From Planctomycetaceae bacterium (lineage in GTDB: Bacteria; Planctomycetota; Planctomycetia; Pirellulales; UBA1268), in the NCBI GenBank assembly GCA_947453375.1, contig CANGGT010000003.1, positions 1 to 55,987 of the forward strand: 55,987 nt of DNA, read 5' to 3'. Below the pieces are notes generated by a model, which worked only from the letters and a program-made list of their open reading frames with translations, did no database searches and was not told the origin of the DNA. This document shows, one piece after another, positions 4,358 through 46,390 of the stretch. Both the position numbers and the translations under genes were made by a program. Each line of letters begins with the position of its first letter. Within the stretch, counting starts at the first letter, position 1.

Positions 4358-4492
4358 ATCCAGCTTATCAGGCGGCCGAGCTGTTTCGGTCGTCAGAAGA
4401 GAGGGGTCTCTTCGACCGACCGCCAGTTCGGGCCGGCTCGAGAAAAATCCTGCTCGGTCCCACTGGTTTCTTGTTCCTTTCCGGAGGTGTCA

Positions 4493-6910
4493 GTGATTCG
4501 TAAATTCGTGTTTCGAATCCTCCCCGCCTTTGCCGTTGTCGTGACGTGTGCGAGCACGTTTGCCGATGACTGTGGCAACTGCGGTGGCGGGTGTGAGGGT
4601 GGCTGCGGCAGCGCCGTGGCTTCCGAAGGTGGCGTTGTCGAAGGTGGCTCGGTCGTGGCCGACGGTGGCTGCGCTCCGGCGACCAAGACGGTGTACCAGC
4701 GTCAGTACGTGACGGAGATGAAGACCGTCACGTCGACCGAGTACACCACGGAGCAGCGCGAGCGGACCTACACGGTCAACAAGCGCGTTCCGCGGACCGA
4801 AGAGAAGTCCCGCACGGTCACCGTGCAGGTCCCCGAGACCCGGAGCCGCACGGTCAACTACACGGTCAACAAGCCCGTGACGGAGACCAAGACGTCCGAG
4901 TACACGGTCCAGGTTCCCTACACCGAGTCGGTCGAGCAGACCTACACGGTGAACGTGCCGGTTCAGGAGGAGAAGACCTCCACCTACACCGTCATGGTTC
5001 CGAAGACCGAAGAGAAGACTTCGACCTACACGGTCCAGGTCCCCTACACGGAGTCGGTTGAGCAGTCCTACACGGTGATGGTCCCCACCACCGAAGAGAA
5101 GACCTCGACCTACACCGAGCAGGTTGCCTACACCGAGCCGGTCGAGCAGTCCTACACGGTCAACGTCCCGGTTTCGGAGGAGAAGGTCTCGACCTACACG
5201 GTCCAGGTCCCCTACACCGAATCCGTCGAGCAGGCCTACACGGTCATGGTGCCGAAGTCCGAGGAGAAGGTTTCGACCTACTCGGTCCAGGTTCCCTACA
5301 CCGAGTCGGTCGAGCAGTCCTACACGGTGAACGTGCCGGTGTCGGAGGAGAAGACCTCCACCTACACCGTCCAGGTTCCCTACACCGAGTCGGTCGAGCA
5401 GTCCTACACGGTCAACGTGCCGGTTCAGGAGGAGAAGACCTCCACCTACACCGTCATGGTGCCCTACACCGAAGAGAAGGTCTCGACCTACACGGTTCAG
5501 GTCCCCTACACCGAGCAGGTCGAGCAGACCTACACGGTGAACGTTCCCTACACCGAGCAGATGACCGGCTCGCGCACCGTGCAGAAGCGGGTCGCGGTCC
5601 AGGGCACGAAGACGGTGCAGGTCCGTGGTGGCCACTGGGAGACCCAGCAGGTCCAGGTCGGTGGCGGCGTTGACGCCAACGGCTGCGAGTGCGCTCCGAA
5701 GATGTGCTGCAAGCGCGTCTGGGTGCCGACTTGCGAGACGAAGGAAGTTCCGACCTGCACCTACCAGTGCACGACGGAAGAGGTTCCCTACACCTACTCG
5801 GTGCAGAAGTGCCGGCAGGAGCAGCGGAGCAAGATGGTGAACGTGACCCGGACCCGCAGCGAAGAGCGGACTCGCACCTACACGGTGACGAACTGCCGCC
5901 CTGAAGAGCGGACCCGTTCCTACACGGTCACCAAGTACGTCCCCGAGACGAAGACCCGTTCGGTCAACGTCACGAAGTATCGTCCGGAAGAGCGGACCCG
6001 CTCCTACACCGTGACGAAGATGGTGCCCGAGACGAAGACCCGTTCGGTCAACGTCACGAAGTACCGTTCGGAAGAGCGGACCCGGACCTACACCGTCACC
6101 ACCCAGGTGGCGGAGCAGCGTACGCGTTCGGTCAACGTGACGAAGTACCGTTCGGAAGAGCGTCAGAAGTCCTACACGGTCACGAAGATGGTCCCCGAGA
6201 CGAAGACCCGCACGGTCAACGTCACGAAGTACCGTCCCGAGGAGCGCACCCGCTCCTACACCGTGACGAAGATGGTGCCCGAGACGAAGACCCGTTCGGT
6301 CAACGTCACGAAGTACCGTTCGGAAGAGCGGACCCGCAACTACACCGTCACGGTCAACGTGCCGGAAGAGCGGACCCGCAGCTACACCGTCACGAAGTAC
6401 GTGCCGGAGCAGAAGTCCCGCAGCGTCAACGTCACCAAGTACCGCACGGAAACCAAGACCCGTGAGTACCAGGTCACGAAGATGGTGCCCGAGACCATGA
6501 GCCGTGAAGAGTCCTACACGGTGATGGTCCCGCAGCAGAAGACCGAGAGCTACTCGGTCACGGTGTACGACTGCGTGCCCGAGACGAAGACGCAGACCTA
6601 CTCGGTCCGCGTTCCTCACACGGTCACGAAGGAAGTCCCCGTCCAGAAGTGTGTCTCCGTCGCCGTCGAGGTGCCGGTTGAGAACGCTTGTGGTGGCTGT
6701 GGTTCGGCTGGTGCCGGCGACGCCGGTTCGGCTGGCTCGGCTGGTGGCTGTGCCTCGGGTGACTGCGGCGGTGCCTCGGCCGGTTCGGCTTCGGCCGGCG
6801 GCTGCGGTGAGTCGGCTGCCTGTGGCAGCTGTGGCTCGGCCGGCAGCTGCGGCAAGGCCTGTGCCAAGAAGGGTTGTGGCCGTCGCCACCGTTGCAGCCG
6901 CTGCGGCTGA
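4493..6910 (+). CDS. Secreted YTV-repeat protein with Cys/Gly-rich termini (planctomycete envelope/structural protein)
   Basis: GGAGGT Shine-Dalgarno at 4483-4488, then GTG 4493. Signal peptide MIRKFVFRILPAFAVVVTCASTFA, many YTV-containing 14-aa repeats, and Cys-rich N-terminus, centre and C-terminus. Confidence 0.9.
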   Translation: MIRKFVFRILPAFAVVVTCASTFADDCGNCGGGCEGGCGSAVASEGGVVEGGSVVADGGCAPATKTVYQRQYVTEMKTVTSTEYTTEQRERTYTVNKRVPRTEEKSRTVTVQVPETRSRTVNYTVNKPVTETKTSEYTVQVPYTESVEQTYTVNVPVQEEKTSTYTVMVPKTEEKTSTYTVQVPYTESVEQSYTVMVPTTEEKTSTYTEQVAYTEPVEQSYTVNVPVSEEKVSTYTVQVPYTESVEQAYTVMVPKSEEKVSTYSVQVPYTESVEQSYTVNVPVSEEKTSTYTVQVPYTESVEQSYTVNVPVQEEKTSTYTVMVPYTEEKVSTYTVQVPYTEQVEQTYTVNVPYTEQMTGSRTVQKRVAVQGTKTVQVRGGHWETQQVQVGGGVDANGCECAPKMCCKRVWVPTCETKEVPTCTYQCTTEEVPYTYSVQKCRQEQRSKMVNVTRTRSEERTRTYTVTNCRPEERTRSYTVTKYVPETKTRSVNVTKYRPEERTRSYTVTKMVPETKTRSVNVTKYRSEERTRTYTVTTQVAEQRTRSVNVTKYRSEERQKSYTVTKMVPETKTRTVNVTKYRPEERTRSYTVTKMVPETKTRSVNVTKYRSEERTRNYTVTVNVPEERTRSYTVTKYVPEQKSRSVNVTKYRTETKTREYQVTKMVPETMSREESYTVMVPQQKTESYSVTVYDCVPETKTQTYSVRVPHTVTKEVPVQKCVSVAVEVPVENACGGCGSAGAGDAGSAGSAGGCASGDCGGASAGSASAGGCGESAACGSCGSAGSCGKACAKKGCGRRHRCSRCG
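4877..5548 (+). repeat. N-arm coding tandem array: 16 x 42 nt (14 aa), acidic
   Basis: Units of type A (YTESVEQSYTVNVP) and type B (xxEEKTSTYTVQVP); exactly 672 nt. Confidence 0.9.
5819..6490 (+). repeat. C-arm coding tandem array: 16 x 42 nt (14 aa), basic
   Basis: Units of type A' (ETKTRSVNVTKYRx) and type B' (EERTRSYTVTKMVP); exactly 672 nt. Confidence 0.9.
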
Positions 6911-7002: not shown

Positions 7003-7109
7003 ATCGCGAGCTTTGTCTTCGCGCTCGCTCGGGCGAGCTTTATCGCGAGCTTAGTCTTCGCGCTCGCTCGGGCGGGCTTTATCGCGAGCTTTCTCTTCGC
7101 GCTCGCTCG
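7003..7109. repeat. Intergenic 39-bp tandem repeat (about 2.7 copies) with internal palindromes, REP-like
   Basis: Units start at 7003, 7042 and 7081 with consensus ATCGCGAGCTTxxTCTTCGCGCTCGCTCGGGCGrGCTTT. Confidence 0.85.
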
Positions 7110-7184: not shown

Positions 7185-7610
7185 TCAGCCCCGGGCCTTG
7201 AGGAGATCGCGGATCTCCGTGAGGAGCTTCTCCTCCGTCGAAGGTTCCGGGGCCGCCGGAGCGGCGCCGGCGGCCTTCGATTTCATCAACCAGCCGAGAA
7301 ACTTCACGATGAAGAGGAACAGCGCGGCGGCGAGGATCACGAAGCTGACGACGTCCGCCAGGAAGAGCCCCACCGGCACGCCGTCGCCGATCGGCAACTT
7401 CCAATCCTTGTAGCTCTGGTCGCCCGGCATGACGGCGCCGAGGAGCGGCATGATCACGTTTTCGACGAGACTCGTGACGATCTTGCCGAACTGCGCTCCG
7501 ATGATCACGCCGACGGCGAGATCGACGACGTTGCCCTTGAAGGCAAAGTTCTTGAACTCCTCGAGGAGCGAGAAGGCCTGTTTCGTGGGGATGGAATCGG
7601 GAATCTCCAT
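7185..7610 (-). CDS. mscL: Large-conductance mechanosensitive channel
   Basis: EFKNFAFKGNVVDLAVGVIIG and C-terminal LLTEIRDLL. Confidence 0.97.
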   Translation of the reverse strand: MEIPDSIPTKQAFSLLEEFKNFAFKGNVVDLAVGVIIGAQFGKIVTSLVENVIMPLLGAVMPGDQSYKDWKLPIGDGVPVGLFLADVVSFVILAAALFLFIVKFLGWLMKSKAAGAAPAAPEPSTEEKLLTEIRDLLKARG

Positions 7611-44100: not shown

Positions 44101-45345
44101 TCAGACGCGGGCGGGGGCGTCGACACGCCACCAGAGGACGAGGGCCGAGACGATCGACACCAGTCCCAGCGAGAGCAGGGGGGGAAAGATCGCCTGCCAG
44201 CGACGCTCGATGCCGAACACCCAGGCCTGGATCACGCCGAGGGAATGATAGGGGGAGATCCAGGCCCAGCGATCGATCGTGTCGTCGAGCCCGGTGGCCC
44301 GGGAGAGCCAGCGGAACTGCATGACGTTGCGCTGCCGGCCACCTTGCGGCCCGCGCCCCTCGATGAGATCGGCGAGGCTCTCCCCGATCTCCCCCCCCGG
44401 CCCCATCGGTCGGACTTTGCTGCGGCGGGAACGTCTGGGGGCATCCTCAACCGAGAACCCACCGTCAGAAGCACGCGAGGGATCGGCGGTTTGAGCGTTC
44501 GCGCCCGCGCGGATCTCCTCGTGCGCCTGCTGCATCATGTCGGCGGTGGTCAGTGACGCGTGGGCGATCCAACAGGCGGCCCAGGTGGCAAACCAGGCGA
44601 AGCTTGCGATACGGCTCTCGGCGGTGAGCGACGAGTAGGCCAGCGCCATGAAGACCGTGGGAATGGCCAGCGCCAGGCTGGCGACGATGATCCTCACAGG
44701 CAGATCCCACGTCGTTACCGCCACCCAGATGCTCGGGCTCACCGCCACCCCCGCCACCCACAGCGCCAGCGCCGGCAGCATCGTGATCGAGGCAACGAGA
44801 AGGCCGAGAATGAGGAGTTTTCCGGCGACGTACTCGAACTTCCCCACTGGGCGCGTGAAGTAGATCAGCCAGGCCTTCGCCCGCAGATCGCGCGACACCA
44901 GCGCCGGCGCCACCAGCCCTACCACGATCGCCAGGAGGATCGCCTGAGGCGAACGCATGAAGGCGAGCATCAGCCGCGACCAGACGGCCCGGCGCGTCCG
45001 GTCGGCCTCCTCCTCGCGGGTCTCATGCGGATCGGCCGGAGCGGCGTCGGTCTGGCCGAGCGCGTCGGCGATCGCCCGTCCGAGGATCCCCACGCCGTCG
45101 ACGTTGCGGCCGACGCGGGCCCGGTCCTGGATCGACCCCAGCCGTCCCTCGTCGATCGCCTGCTCGAAGACGAAGAAGCTCCCGGCGAACACCAAGGCCG
45201 GGCTCCAGGCGAAGAACACGGCCCGGCGCAGCCAGCGGCTCGTCCACGCCAGCTTGATGCCGGTGGCGGCGATGACGAGGATCGCGGCGAGCGAGCCGGA
45301 ACGCTTCCCCTGCCAGGGGCGGTAGCCGACGTCATGGAGCGGCAT
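44101..45345 (-). CDS. ABC-2 type permease
   Basis: GYRPWQG N-terminus, LVSRDLR...IYFTRPV...YVAGK and TM helices. Confidence 0.8.
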   Translation of the reverse strand: MPLHDVGYRPWQGKRSGSLAAILVIAATGIKLAWTSRWLRRAVFFAWSPALVFAGSFFVFEQAIDEGRLGSIQDRARVGRNVDGVGILGRAIADALGQTDAAPADPHETREEEADRTRRAVWSRLMLAFMRSPQAILLAIVVGLVAPALVSRDLRAKAWLIYFTRPVGKFEYVAGKLLILGLLVASITMLPALALWVAGVAVSPSIWVAVTTWDLPVRIIVASLALAIPTVFMALAYSSLTAESRIASFAWFATWAACWIAHASLTTADMMQQAHEEIRAGANAQTADPSRASDGGFSVEDAPRRSRRSKVRPMGPGGEIGESLADLIEGRGPQGGRQRNVMQFRWLSRATGLDDTIDRWAWISPYHSLGVIQAWVFGIERRWQAIFPPLLSLGLVSIVSALVLWWRVDAPARV

Positions 45346-46390
45346 GGAGAGACTCCGGCGGGGGCGCCTGGGCGGCCTGGAGGGCCTCGAGAAACACCTC
45401 CTCGAAAGGGCGGCAGGAAGCTTTGAGCGAGCTGACCCGGATGCCGAGTTGGTTCACCTCCGACCACATGCCGGCAAGCGCCTCAGGCGCAGCGAGCTGG
45501 AGCAGGACCACCCCCTCGTGCGCCCCGTCCCCCGGCGTCACGGTCTCGACGGTGGCGGAGAATCGGCCGGCCGCTCCGGCCGCGGAGGGGAAGAGATCGA
45601 GCGGCCGGGCACGCCGGGCTGGGATCCCGCGGGCGATGAGGCGGCGGACGAACTCGTCGACCGGCCCGGTGACTTCGAGCCGCTCCTCCGGGATCGCCGG
45701 CTGGGTCAGCTCCCGGATCGAGCCGGTCAACCGCACCCGGCCTCCGGCGAGGACGATCACGCGCTCGCAGATCGATTGCACGTCGGGGAGGACATGGGTG
45801 GAGACGAGGATCGTCTTGCCGTGGTCGCGGGCGAGCGTGGTGAGCCGGCCGAGCATCGCCCGCCGCTCGATCGGATCGAGGCCGTTGGTCGGCTCGTCGA
45901 GGATCACCATCCGCGGGTCGTGGACGATTGCCGCGGCAAACGAGATCTTCTGTTTCATCCCCACCGAGAGCGTCTCCACCGGGCGGTAGCGCTCCTGGCC
46001 GGCGTCGCACCAATCAAGCACCTCGTGCGCTCGACGGAGCGATTCGATCCCGGGGATCCCGGAGAGTTGAGCCGCGTAGCGCACCATCTCCACCCCGGAG
46101 AGCCCCGGCACGGAGCATTCGTCCTCCGGGACGACGCCGACGAACCTGCGCACGGCATGGGGACTGCGGCGCGGATCGAGCCCGAACACGCGCACGCTCC
46201 CTTCGGCGAGGCGCACGAGGCCGAGGATCGCTTTGACCAGCGTGCTCTTGCCGGCCCCGTTGGGCCCGACGAGCCCGGTGATGCCCGGGTGGACGGTGAG
46301 CGACACGCGGTCGAGGACCGTGCGCTTCCCGTACCGCTTGACGATCCCCGTGGCCTGCACCGGCTCTTCCACGGACGACGATCGGCTCAT
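45332..46390 (-). CDS. ABC transporter ATP-binding protein
   Basis: GPNGAGKST, LSVGMKQK, ILDEPTNGLDP and STH. Confidence 0.93.
   Translation of the reverse strand: MSRSSSVEEPVQATGIVKRYGKRTVLDRVSLTVHPGITGLVGPNGAGKSTLVKAILGLVRLAEGSVRVFGLDPRRSPHAVRRFVGVVPEDECSVPGLSGVEMVRYAAQLSGIPGIESLRRAHEVLDWCDAGQERYRPVETLSVGMKQKISFAAAIVHDPRMVILDEPTNGLDPIERRAMLGRLTTLARDHGKTILVSTHVLPDVQSICERVIVLAGGRVRLTGSIRELTQPAIPEERLEVTGPVDEFVRRLIARGIPARRARPLDLFPSAAGAAGRFSATVETVTPGDGAHEGVVLLQLAAPEALAGMWSEVNQLGIRVSSLKASCRPFEEVFLEALQAAQAPPPESLHAAP

Follow-up and report, generated by a model that had tools for sequence, protein, structure and literature searches.

The stretch of DNA analysed here (the window) comprises positions 1 to 55,987 of contig CANGGT010000003.1, from assembly GCA_947453375.1 of a Planctomycetaceae bacterium. 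Near its start, at 4487..6910 on the forward strand, lies an open reading frame (ORF) of 807 aa with a GTG start and a stop codon at 6908-6910. The ORF matches the Pfam YTV model (PF07639) in 18 stretches, with an E-value of 4.2e-63 and 209.6 bits against a cut-off of 21; it has no match in NCBIfam. The two repetitive halves of this YTV protein very probably fold back on one another and pair in antiparallel fashion to form one long hairpin.

The central part of the gene consists of two arrays of 14-aa units, delimited by unit cutting and by Tandem Repeats Finder, on either side of a core. The N arm (aa 131-354, 4877..5548) contains 16 acidic units with a net charge of -22, and the C arm (aa 445-668, 5819..6490) contains 16 basic units with a net charge of +28, arranged in mirror-complementary order. 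The core (aa 355-444, 5549..5818) is 90 aa long, has a net charge of +3 and carries eight Cys on its C-side half. At its midpoint is the sequence DANG (aa 396-399, 5672..5683), the predicted tip of the hairpin; in the AlphaFold2 model the inner strands of the core run up to a loop of aa 392-404, with W384 (nt 5636-5638) paired with W412 (nt 5720-5722). A first-pass annotation of the window had described a 90-aa core, centred on DANG and flanked by two exact 672-nt arrays of 16 × 14 aa, and cutting the translation into 14-aa units reproduces this. The arm boundaries are nonetheless a choice, as degenerate YTV units extend beyond both arms (aa 66-130 and 669-735).

These degenerate units form the outer strands. 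The outer N strand (4682..4876) is basic, has aa 666-730 as its partner, was used as the 'pre' anchor in the comparisons of arm length and is modelled with a predicted local distance difference test score (pLDDT) of 74-85; the outer C strand (6491..6691; pLDDT 74-84) was used as the 'post' anchor. Outside the strands the chain begins with a putative Sec signal peptide (aa 1-26, 4487..4564; cleavage after TFA judged by eye from the sequence), followed by a Cys/Gly-rich N-terminal tail (aa 27-65, 4565..4681, 5 Cys, pLDDT <50) that would lie at the hairpin base beside the C-terminal tail, which is likewise Cys/Gly-rich (aa 736-807, 6692..6907, 11 Cys). All of these features are on the forward strand. 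The ORF encodes 29 Cys, clustered in both tails and in the core.

Two unit types alternate irregularly in the N arm, in the order BABBABABABABABBA, and the C arm carries the complementary types in mirrored order. Type A units have a charge of -2 and type B units of -1 (0 in two K variants, -2 in unit 6); in the C arm the YTV-type units have a charge of +1 (0 where the K is lost) and the VNV-type units of +3. When unit N_i is set against unit C_(17-i), complementary types meet in 16 of 16 pairs, versus at most 10 of 14 in any other antiparallel slip. In the register that sets residue i opposite residue 796-i, the first position of each B unit falls opposite position 11 of its YTV-type partner; V or T is opposite K in six of these nine pairs, and the remaining three are K173-V623, K257-T539 and Y327-N469. 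The first-pass annotation had singled out the same three pairs, as K-start B units opposite K-less C units and a Y-start unit opposite an NCRP-type unit; the K/non-K variants are directly opposed and thus agree with a register that was derived without them. Two further pairings that it listed are also present in the sequence: the two VQ units lie opposite both units ending in KYVP, and the motif ETKTxEY is common to the two outermost units, where it pairs with itself as a palindrome (K135-Y661, Y139-K657). Separately, one unit in each arm has its closing Pro replaced by Ala and ends in QVA (A214, 5126-5128; A542, 6110-6112). These two are not mutually opposed, A214 facing Y582 and A542 facing M254, and both are kept in G007, an independent genome of the same genus.

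Homologues were collected by a word-indexed search (210 at E ≤ 0.001, the best 120 of 210 being used) and by a profile search of 1.84 billion representatives (798 found, the best 150 of 798 being used). Their common plan is a leader, often a Cys-rich tail, outer units, N arm, core, C arm, outer units and a tail. The core has two conserved aromatics, in the contexts G-x-W and W-x-P; W412 and P414 are invariant and W384 nearly so, and the query has both the aromatic tip pair and the two outer anchors. Arm lengths were measured between outer and core anchors, each side being anchored without reference to the other. Plain phmmer anchors gave equal arms in 27 of 27 fully core-aligned homologues (25 exactly, two at 83/84), in length classes of 28, 42, 68, 70, 84, 122 and 224 aa. 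Iterated anchor profiles were then applied to 261 sequences under a rule, set in advance, that takes the outermost anchor, and 177 sequences were usable. The C side exceeds the N side by exactly 2 residues in 146 of the 177 and by 1-5 residues in 167, with r = 0.97. A rule that took the best-scoring anchor had given 167 exact matches among 196 usable sequences and was replaced; its mismatches came in multiples of 14 because the iterated profiles also match internal repeats.

The N sides fall into about 12 classes (79, 93, 107, 121, 123, 133, 135, 148/149, 187, 248, 289 and 303 residues, the query being in the class of 289). Arm lengths among the homologues span 14 to 238 aa, with 224/224 in the query, and even differences of two residues are mirrored across the arms, as in the classes 56/56 versus 58/58 and 68/68 versus 70/70. 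That the N and C arms of homologues should stay equal in length had been named as a check in the first-pass annotation, and they do. At the tip the loop has anything from 4 to about 220 residues, as would be expected for the sole site with free length.

Several of the homologues are of interest in their own right. The longest arms (238/238 aa) occur in a distant subfamily of 'giant' proteins of about 950-1200 aa (P0030, P0045, P0056 and kin), which are extended at the N terminus by a long Pro/Gln/Ser-rich stretch and lack the Cys/Gly tails. Six homologues (P0043, P0051, P0060, P0071, P0096 and P0109) are called 'ferredoxin' in NCBI records; the name looks unfounded and probably stems from the Cys/Gly-rich tails and tip loops. 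Homologue P0018 (744 aa) has Fpg/Nei glycosylase domains ahead of a short (28/28) YTV protein, and is probably two genes fused by gene calling.

A core-only search of 41 genomes (the source genome and 40 relatives) gave matches in 24. The core is 71-100 % identical among orthologues, and the numbers of units are 16/16 in the source genome, 16/16 in G007, 14/14 in G009, 7/7 in G024 and 5/5 in both G017 and G019. Among 28 scored frames, 24 have equal arms (23 exactly, one at 83/84), one is without an N side and two run off the end of the locus; counting complete frames from relatives only, the arms are equal in 24 of 25. In all orthologues, units of complementary type meet at each rung counted from the tip, and a K-start unit always faces a K-less unit. 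At rung 7, K is opposite T or another non-K residue in the query and G007, and Q is opposite K in G009; judged from the sequences, this difference between species is compensatory. The unit count of the query is shared with G007. Most of 4700-6700 is spanned, without joints and at ≥95 % identity, by contigs from two DNA and two metatranscriptome runs (four studies); all of these contigs end within the repeats, and the unit count is thus unconfirmed by them.

The source genome has at least four YTV genes of differing lengths. A paralogue on contig C1 (~45240-46210) has 7/7 units (98/98 aa), and in the lineage of this paralogue in relatives the scored copies are mostly 98/98 as well. A more divergent YTV-like paralogue (C37:17487-20615) has a period of 16 residues, not 14, with four repeats per half (N KPV-x-ET..., C VPVQT...), so that both period and count are matched between its halves. 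Another YTV gene, on contig C9 (~44330-44719), has repeats of the CKPVYET type and runs past the contig end.

Covariation between the two halves was measured with residues numbered outward from the two conserved aromatics, as k on the N side and k' on the C side. Mutual information (MI) with average product correction (APC) was calculated for 167 tip-anchored homologues (~135 effective sequences). The mean MI-APC is 0.139 at k'-k = 0, 0.097 at -2 and 0.092 at +2, and 0.001 at -1 and 0.020 at +1. All other offsets have a mean of -0.001 (sd 0.012, maximum 0.031), and the offsets of one and two units (±14 and ±28) reach only 0.001-0.019. When the C sides are shuffled within length classes, the score falls to 0.008 ± 0.006. 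The 68/68 class alone (150 rungs) gives 0.091, 0.067 and 0.067 versus 0.003 ± 0.009, with the signal seen in every 15-rung block, and the other 98 sequences give 0.127 at offset 0. Charge swaps and Met-Pro combinations are among the pairs that covary. A signal at 0 and ±2 with nothing at odd offsets matches the expectation for an antiparallel beta-ladder, and offset 0 is the register of the AlphaFold2 model (384 + 412 = 796). Parallel pairing was rejected: although the order of the units would allow it, the best parallel-type line reaches 0.031-0.036 versus 0.139 for the antiparallel one.

The AlphaFold2 model of the query was built with 25 aligned sequences and has a mean pLDDT of 53 and a predicted template modelling score (pTM) of 0.25, the confident regions being limited to aa 66-150, 330-470 and 645-730, at the tip and base. 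DSSP assigns unbroken strands to E66-158, E323-391, E405-473 and E638-730 (pLDDT 74-87); the ends of these four strand segments, out of six, satisfy i+j = 796, centred on DANG. Homologue P0016 (460 aa) was modelled from an alignment of 69 sequences that share its arm length. Its model has a signal helix (aa 4-16) and strands E69-230, E233-242, E255-264 and E267-428, with a loop between the second and third; the strand ends all sum to 497, indicating a single hairpin with strands of about 174 residues. Solenoids or short hairpins, which the first-pass annotation had named as refuting its reading, were found in neither model. The structural check that it proposed is thus favourable, with the pairing read from the symmetry of strand ends. 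A two-chain prediction with the two arms (aa 131-354 and 445-668) gave a score of 0.02 and a mark of 0.34; it was run without controls and is no evidence either way.

These results bear on the alternative that each arm folds alone, as a beta-solenoid or as short local hairpins, and that the arms are equal only through a shared history of duplication. A 14-aa repeat ending in Pro could in principle be a strand-turn unit, and the middles of the query arms are modelled with low confidence. Against this, the DSSP strands run unbroken for 69-162 residues without turns at the prolines, and the N-C covariation is seen at the mirror offsets 0 and ±2, the offsets of ±14 and ±28 being without signal. 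The arms also differ at the DNA level, and therefore no copy-number mechanism would keep some 12 length classes equal. We regard independent folding of the arms as extremely improbable.

Prolines in the strands are at even k in 3545 of 3585 cases in the 167 homologues and in 37 of 37 cases in the query; in no lineage, therefore, does either strand contain an indel of odd length, with hardly an exception. Even positions are 25-27 % Thr and 13 % Pro, and odd positions are 30 % Val, 15 % Arg, 13-15 % Glu, 8-10 % Lys and 7-8 % Tyr.

In the model that we favour, the mature chain would run outward as a strand of about aa 66-391, turn at the DANG loop and return antiparallel as a strand of about aa 405-730, with residue i facing residue 796-i. 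The product would be one two-stranded beta-ladder of about 326 rungs; as the rise along a beta-strand is ~0.33 nm per residue, its length would be roughly 100-110 nm. Its two faces would differ chemically, Thr, Pro and Cys being abundant on one and Val, Arg, Glu, Lys and Tyr on the other. A proline recurs every 14 residues on both strands, at even sites that we infer to be non-hydrogen-bonded pairs, where it would spare the ladder and cap both free edges against a third strand. The base would bring together the two Cys/Gly-rich tails, and the loop at the tip would be Cys-rich. The single antiparallel ribbon of about 330 residues per strand proposed in the first-pass annotation is thus supported by the arm lengths, AlphaFold2, covariation and proline parity.

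Several observations weigh against this reading. In the query itself, the parallel register of N_i with C_(i-1) also brings complementary types together, in 15 of 15 pairs, so that unit order alone does not fix the orientation, as the first-pass annotation had cautioned. Periods of 42, 84, 126 and 252 nt are detected by Tandem Repeats Finder in both arms, and because of the higher-order periods of 84 nt and 252 nt (six units) the paired variants within the query carry small statistical weight. They may stem from very few events, and the case from the window alone is suggestive rather than strong; the statistical weight for pairing comes from the homologues, not from a single protein.

Among the homologues, 84 of the 261 could not be scored for arm length. 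Many of these are fragments; 41 were dropped as lacking the core pair, 24 the N anchor and 17 the C anchor, and two as truncated. The length rule is broken in 10 of the 177 that could be scored. On inspection by eye, two of these outliers (P0084 and P0025) have nearly equal arms and apparently misplaced anchors, and in four further ones a weaker outer anchor match among the domain hits would restore equality; P0098, by eye, is roughly equal only (~141 vs 152-170). One complete orthologue (G021, contig C188) has 12 versus 14 units. Its N arm contains exact 28-aa repeats, encoded by 84-nt units that are 91 % alike, and two added units would set its K-start unit opposite the K-less unit. Assembly collapse of the 84-nt repeats is a plausible explanation from the sequence, a real bulge being the alternative.

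The structural models have weaknesses too. The middles of the query arms have pLDDT <50, and the mid-arm strands E271-307 and E573-609 sum to 880, a six-unit slip; the mid-arm register is ambiguous to AlphaFold2 because these columns are empty in the homologues and because of the repeats. Confidence in the P0016 model is moderate (mean pLDDT 62, pTM 0.37), and pairing in both models was deduced from the symmetry of strand ends. AlphaFold2 and covariation are also not fully independent, because both use homologous sequences.

The charges are a further point. A negative N strand with a positive C strand occurs in only 11 of the 167 homologues, and in the query, where the whole strands have net charges of -12 (N) and +25 (C), facing residues almost never carry opposite charges (E211, for example, is opposite E585). 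An electrostatic zipper as a general principle of pairing was rejected because arm polarity is rare and facing charges are seldom opposite. The opposite consensus charges reported for the arms in the first-pass annotation therefore hold for the query and not as a rule of the family; opposite arm charge is a feature of the query's clade.

Length matching, covariation and proline parity would be equally satisfied if the same antiparallel pairing took place between molecules, giving domain-swapped dimers or an open-ended ribbon chain in a polymeric fibre or mesh. A wall polymer would suit the SDS (sodium dodecyl sulphate)-resistant wall fraction described in PMC5287468, and the insertions of up to ~220 aa at the tip indicate that a tight turn is not required. 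On the other hand, covariation is already seen at rungs 3-10 beside the tip and some tip loops have only 4-8 residues between the core anchors, which together favour a local turn. An intramolecular partner would also have a far higher effective concentration, and in the AlphaFold2 monomer models the hairpin is closed, though the intermolecular alternative could not appear in a prediction made with a single chain. Pairing between molecules is on this evidence improbable, and we infer that the hairpin is formed within one chain.

Only 4 of 457 N-strand Cys are directly opposite a Cys, and cross-strand disulfides were rejected on this count. The even face holds most of the strand Cys (1017 of 1348); as strand Cys lack a facing Cys, they are free for links to other molecules. 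They would, in the model, make intermolecular disulfides that tie the rods into an SDS-resistant wall layer, and the rod would serve as a wall strut of set length. Such a disulfide-linked strut would be consistent with the clustering of Cys at the hairpin's base and tip and on one of its faces.

This function would agree with published work on the family. YTV proteins are major constituents of Gemmata walls that survive boiling in 10 % SDS (PMC5287468) and wall preparations of Rhodopirellula and Tuwongella also contained them (PMC8567305, PMC12673574); of the YTV genes of Planctopirus limnophila, one is essential (PMC10632474). These papers describe YTV proteins as Cys-rich and limited to Planctomycetia (PMC5287468, PMC8567305, PMC12673574, PMC10632474), and earlier wall work is cited in two of them (Hieu 2008, Sagulenko 2017 and Mahajan 2020, in PMC8567305 and PMC12673574). 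The family has a restricted distribution in our sample: PF07639 occurs in 19 of 301 genomes of the phylum and in none of 14 control genomes, and the named homologues among the matches listed are from Pirellulaceae, Mariniblastus, Neorhodopirellula and Thalassoroseus. The gene is present in freshwater and lake metagenomes of 14 studies. Its occurrence in contigs from metatranscriptome libraries is no proof of transcription.

The same fold could have another job, as an extracellular fibre, an adhesin, a stalk or holdfast, or a spacer in the enlarged planctomycete periplasm. Rods of 36-110 nm would exceed the width of an ordinary periplasm; the discrete length classes kept within lineages, such as the 98/98 paralogues, are ruler-like; several lengths occur in one genome; and a Thr-rich face could bind polysaccharide or water. 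Yet proteomics places YTV proteins in boiled-SDS wall preparations (PMC5287468, PMC8567305), the Cys clusters at both ends suit cross-linking, and no adhesin, anchor or sorting domain was found in the ORF by Pfam or NCBIfam. We consider such another job rather unlikely. The role as a wall strut, taken alone, is in our judgement finely balanced.

The query resembles other YTV wall proteins in that it passes the PF07639 model, is Cys-rich and, from its leader as judged by eye, probably secreted. It is among the longest (16 + 16 units) and its arm charges (-22/+28) are unusually polarised. The published accounts, in the portions available, describe the motif, the Cys content, the wall fraction and essentiality only, with no fold-back hairpin, matched arms or register. 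No described YTV fold was found in the searched literature, although models of other YTV proteins in the AlphaFold database may already show the shape. The gene is thus a member of a known family, and the fold-back ladder, the residue-exact matching of arms, the register and the proline parity appear to be new.

No chain in the Protein Data Bank (PDB) matched by sequence at E ≤ 0.01, and Foldseek gave no hits at E ≤ 0.001 (best E 0.011, TM ≤ 0.10). The top, non-significant hits were the stem hairpins of aerolysin, lysenin and anthrax protective antigen, and the tail of phage phi29. Like the query model, these are two-stranded antiparallel hairpins far longer than usual. However, toxin stem hairpins have tens of residues per strand and are known only as staves of oligomeric barrels, as against 110-330 residues per strand in the predicted YTV rods, and edge prolines argue against a barrel. 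Membership among the pore-forming toxin stems was rejected for want of significant fold similarity.

Three other systems invite comparison. The arms of SMC, Rad50 and MukB fold back at a central tip, with antiparallel halves of matched length over tens of nm and the termini at the base. This is the architecture of the YTV model, as an analogy and not a homology: those arms are coiled coils of alpha-helices and carry ATPase heads, whereas the YTV arms are beta-strands by DSSP and no ATPase domain was found by Pfam or NCBIfam, and membership in this class was rejected. OspA and the G5-E rods of SasG are strings of small domains with thin, solvent-exposed beta-sheets that lack a conventional hydrophobic core. 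The YTV model is likewise a thin beta rod exposed on both faces, unlike them in strand length, theirs being short; neither was among the Foldseek hits of the model. Finally, OmcA and OmcB are Cys-rich envelope proteins that form a disulfide-linked layer in chlamydiae, a related phylum. They share the proposed function, a Cys-cross-linked shell that stiffens the envelope; the likeness is one of putative function, and no relation in sequence or fold is expected.

The surroundings of the gene add little. Three upstream ORFs have no Pfam match, and the gene neighbourhood is uninformative. Downstream, and convergent with the YTV gene, is mscL (7185-7610, reverse strand; Pfam E 9e-35), encoding the MscL large-conductance mechanosensitive channel; the spacer between the two contains a 39-nt tandem repeat at 7003-7109 (2.7 copies, 94 % matches). 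An antisense open frame of 799 aa (4490-6889, reverse strand), rich in Arg, Gly and Leu, extends across the whole YTV gene. Its composition suggests a by-product of the repetitive, GC-rich coding strand opposite it and not a gene.

For the family as a whole, YTV proteins may be a class of rods that has so far escaped recognition, each an uninterrupted ladder of 110-330 rungs (~36-110 nm). The length of such rods would be set in steps of 14 residues (~4.7 nm) on both strands together, edge prolines in strict parity would prevent aggregation, and Cys at the ends and along one face would weld the rods into a load-bearing wall mesh. We give these four statements, taken jointly, about an even chance of being correct. 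The family data point to an unusual mode of evolution, in which gain or loss of repeats is needed jointly in two distant parts of one gene. The longest hairpins in the PDB are about one tenth as long as the predicted one, which would thus add to what is known of protein structure; its readable register and natural length variants are attractive for the design of rigid nanoscale spacers.

Planctomycete walls have long been puzzling, being protein-rich and resistant to boiling SDS, with YTV proteins as their main known constituents. The searched papers contain no YTV structure or mechanism, and the residue-exact ribbon offers a concrete, testable model. If it is true, these walls would contain struts of defined length with cross-linkable ends.

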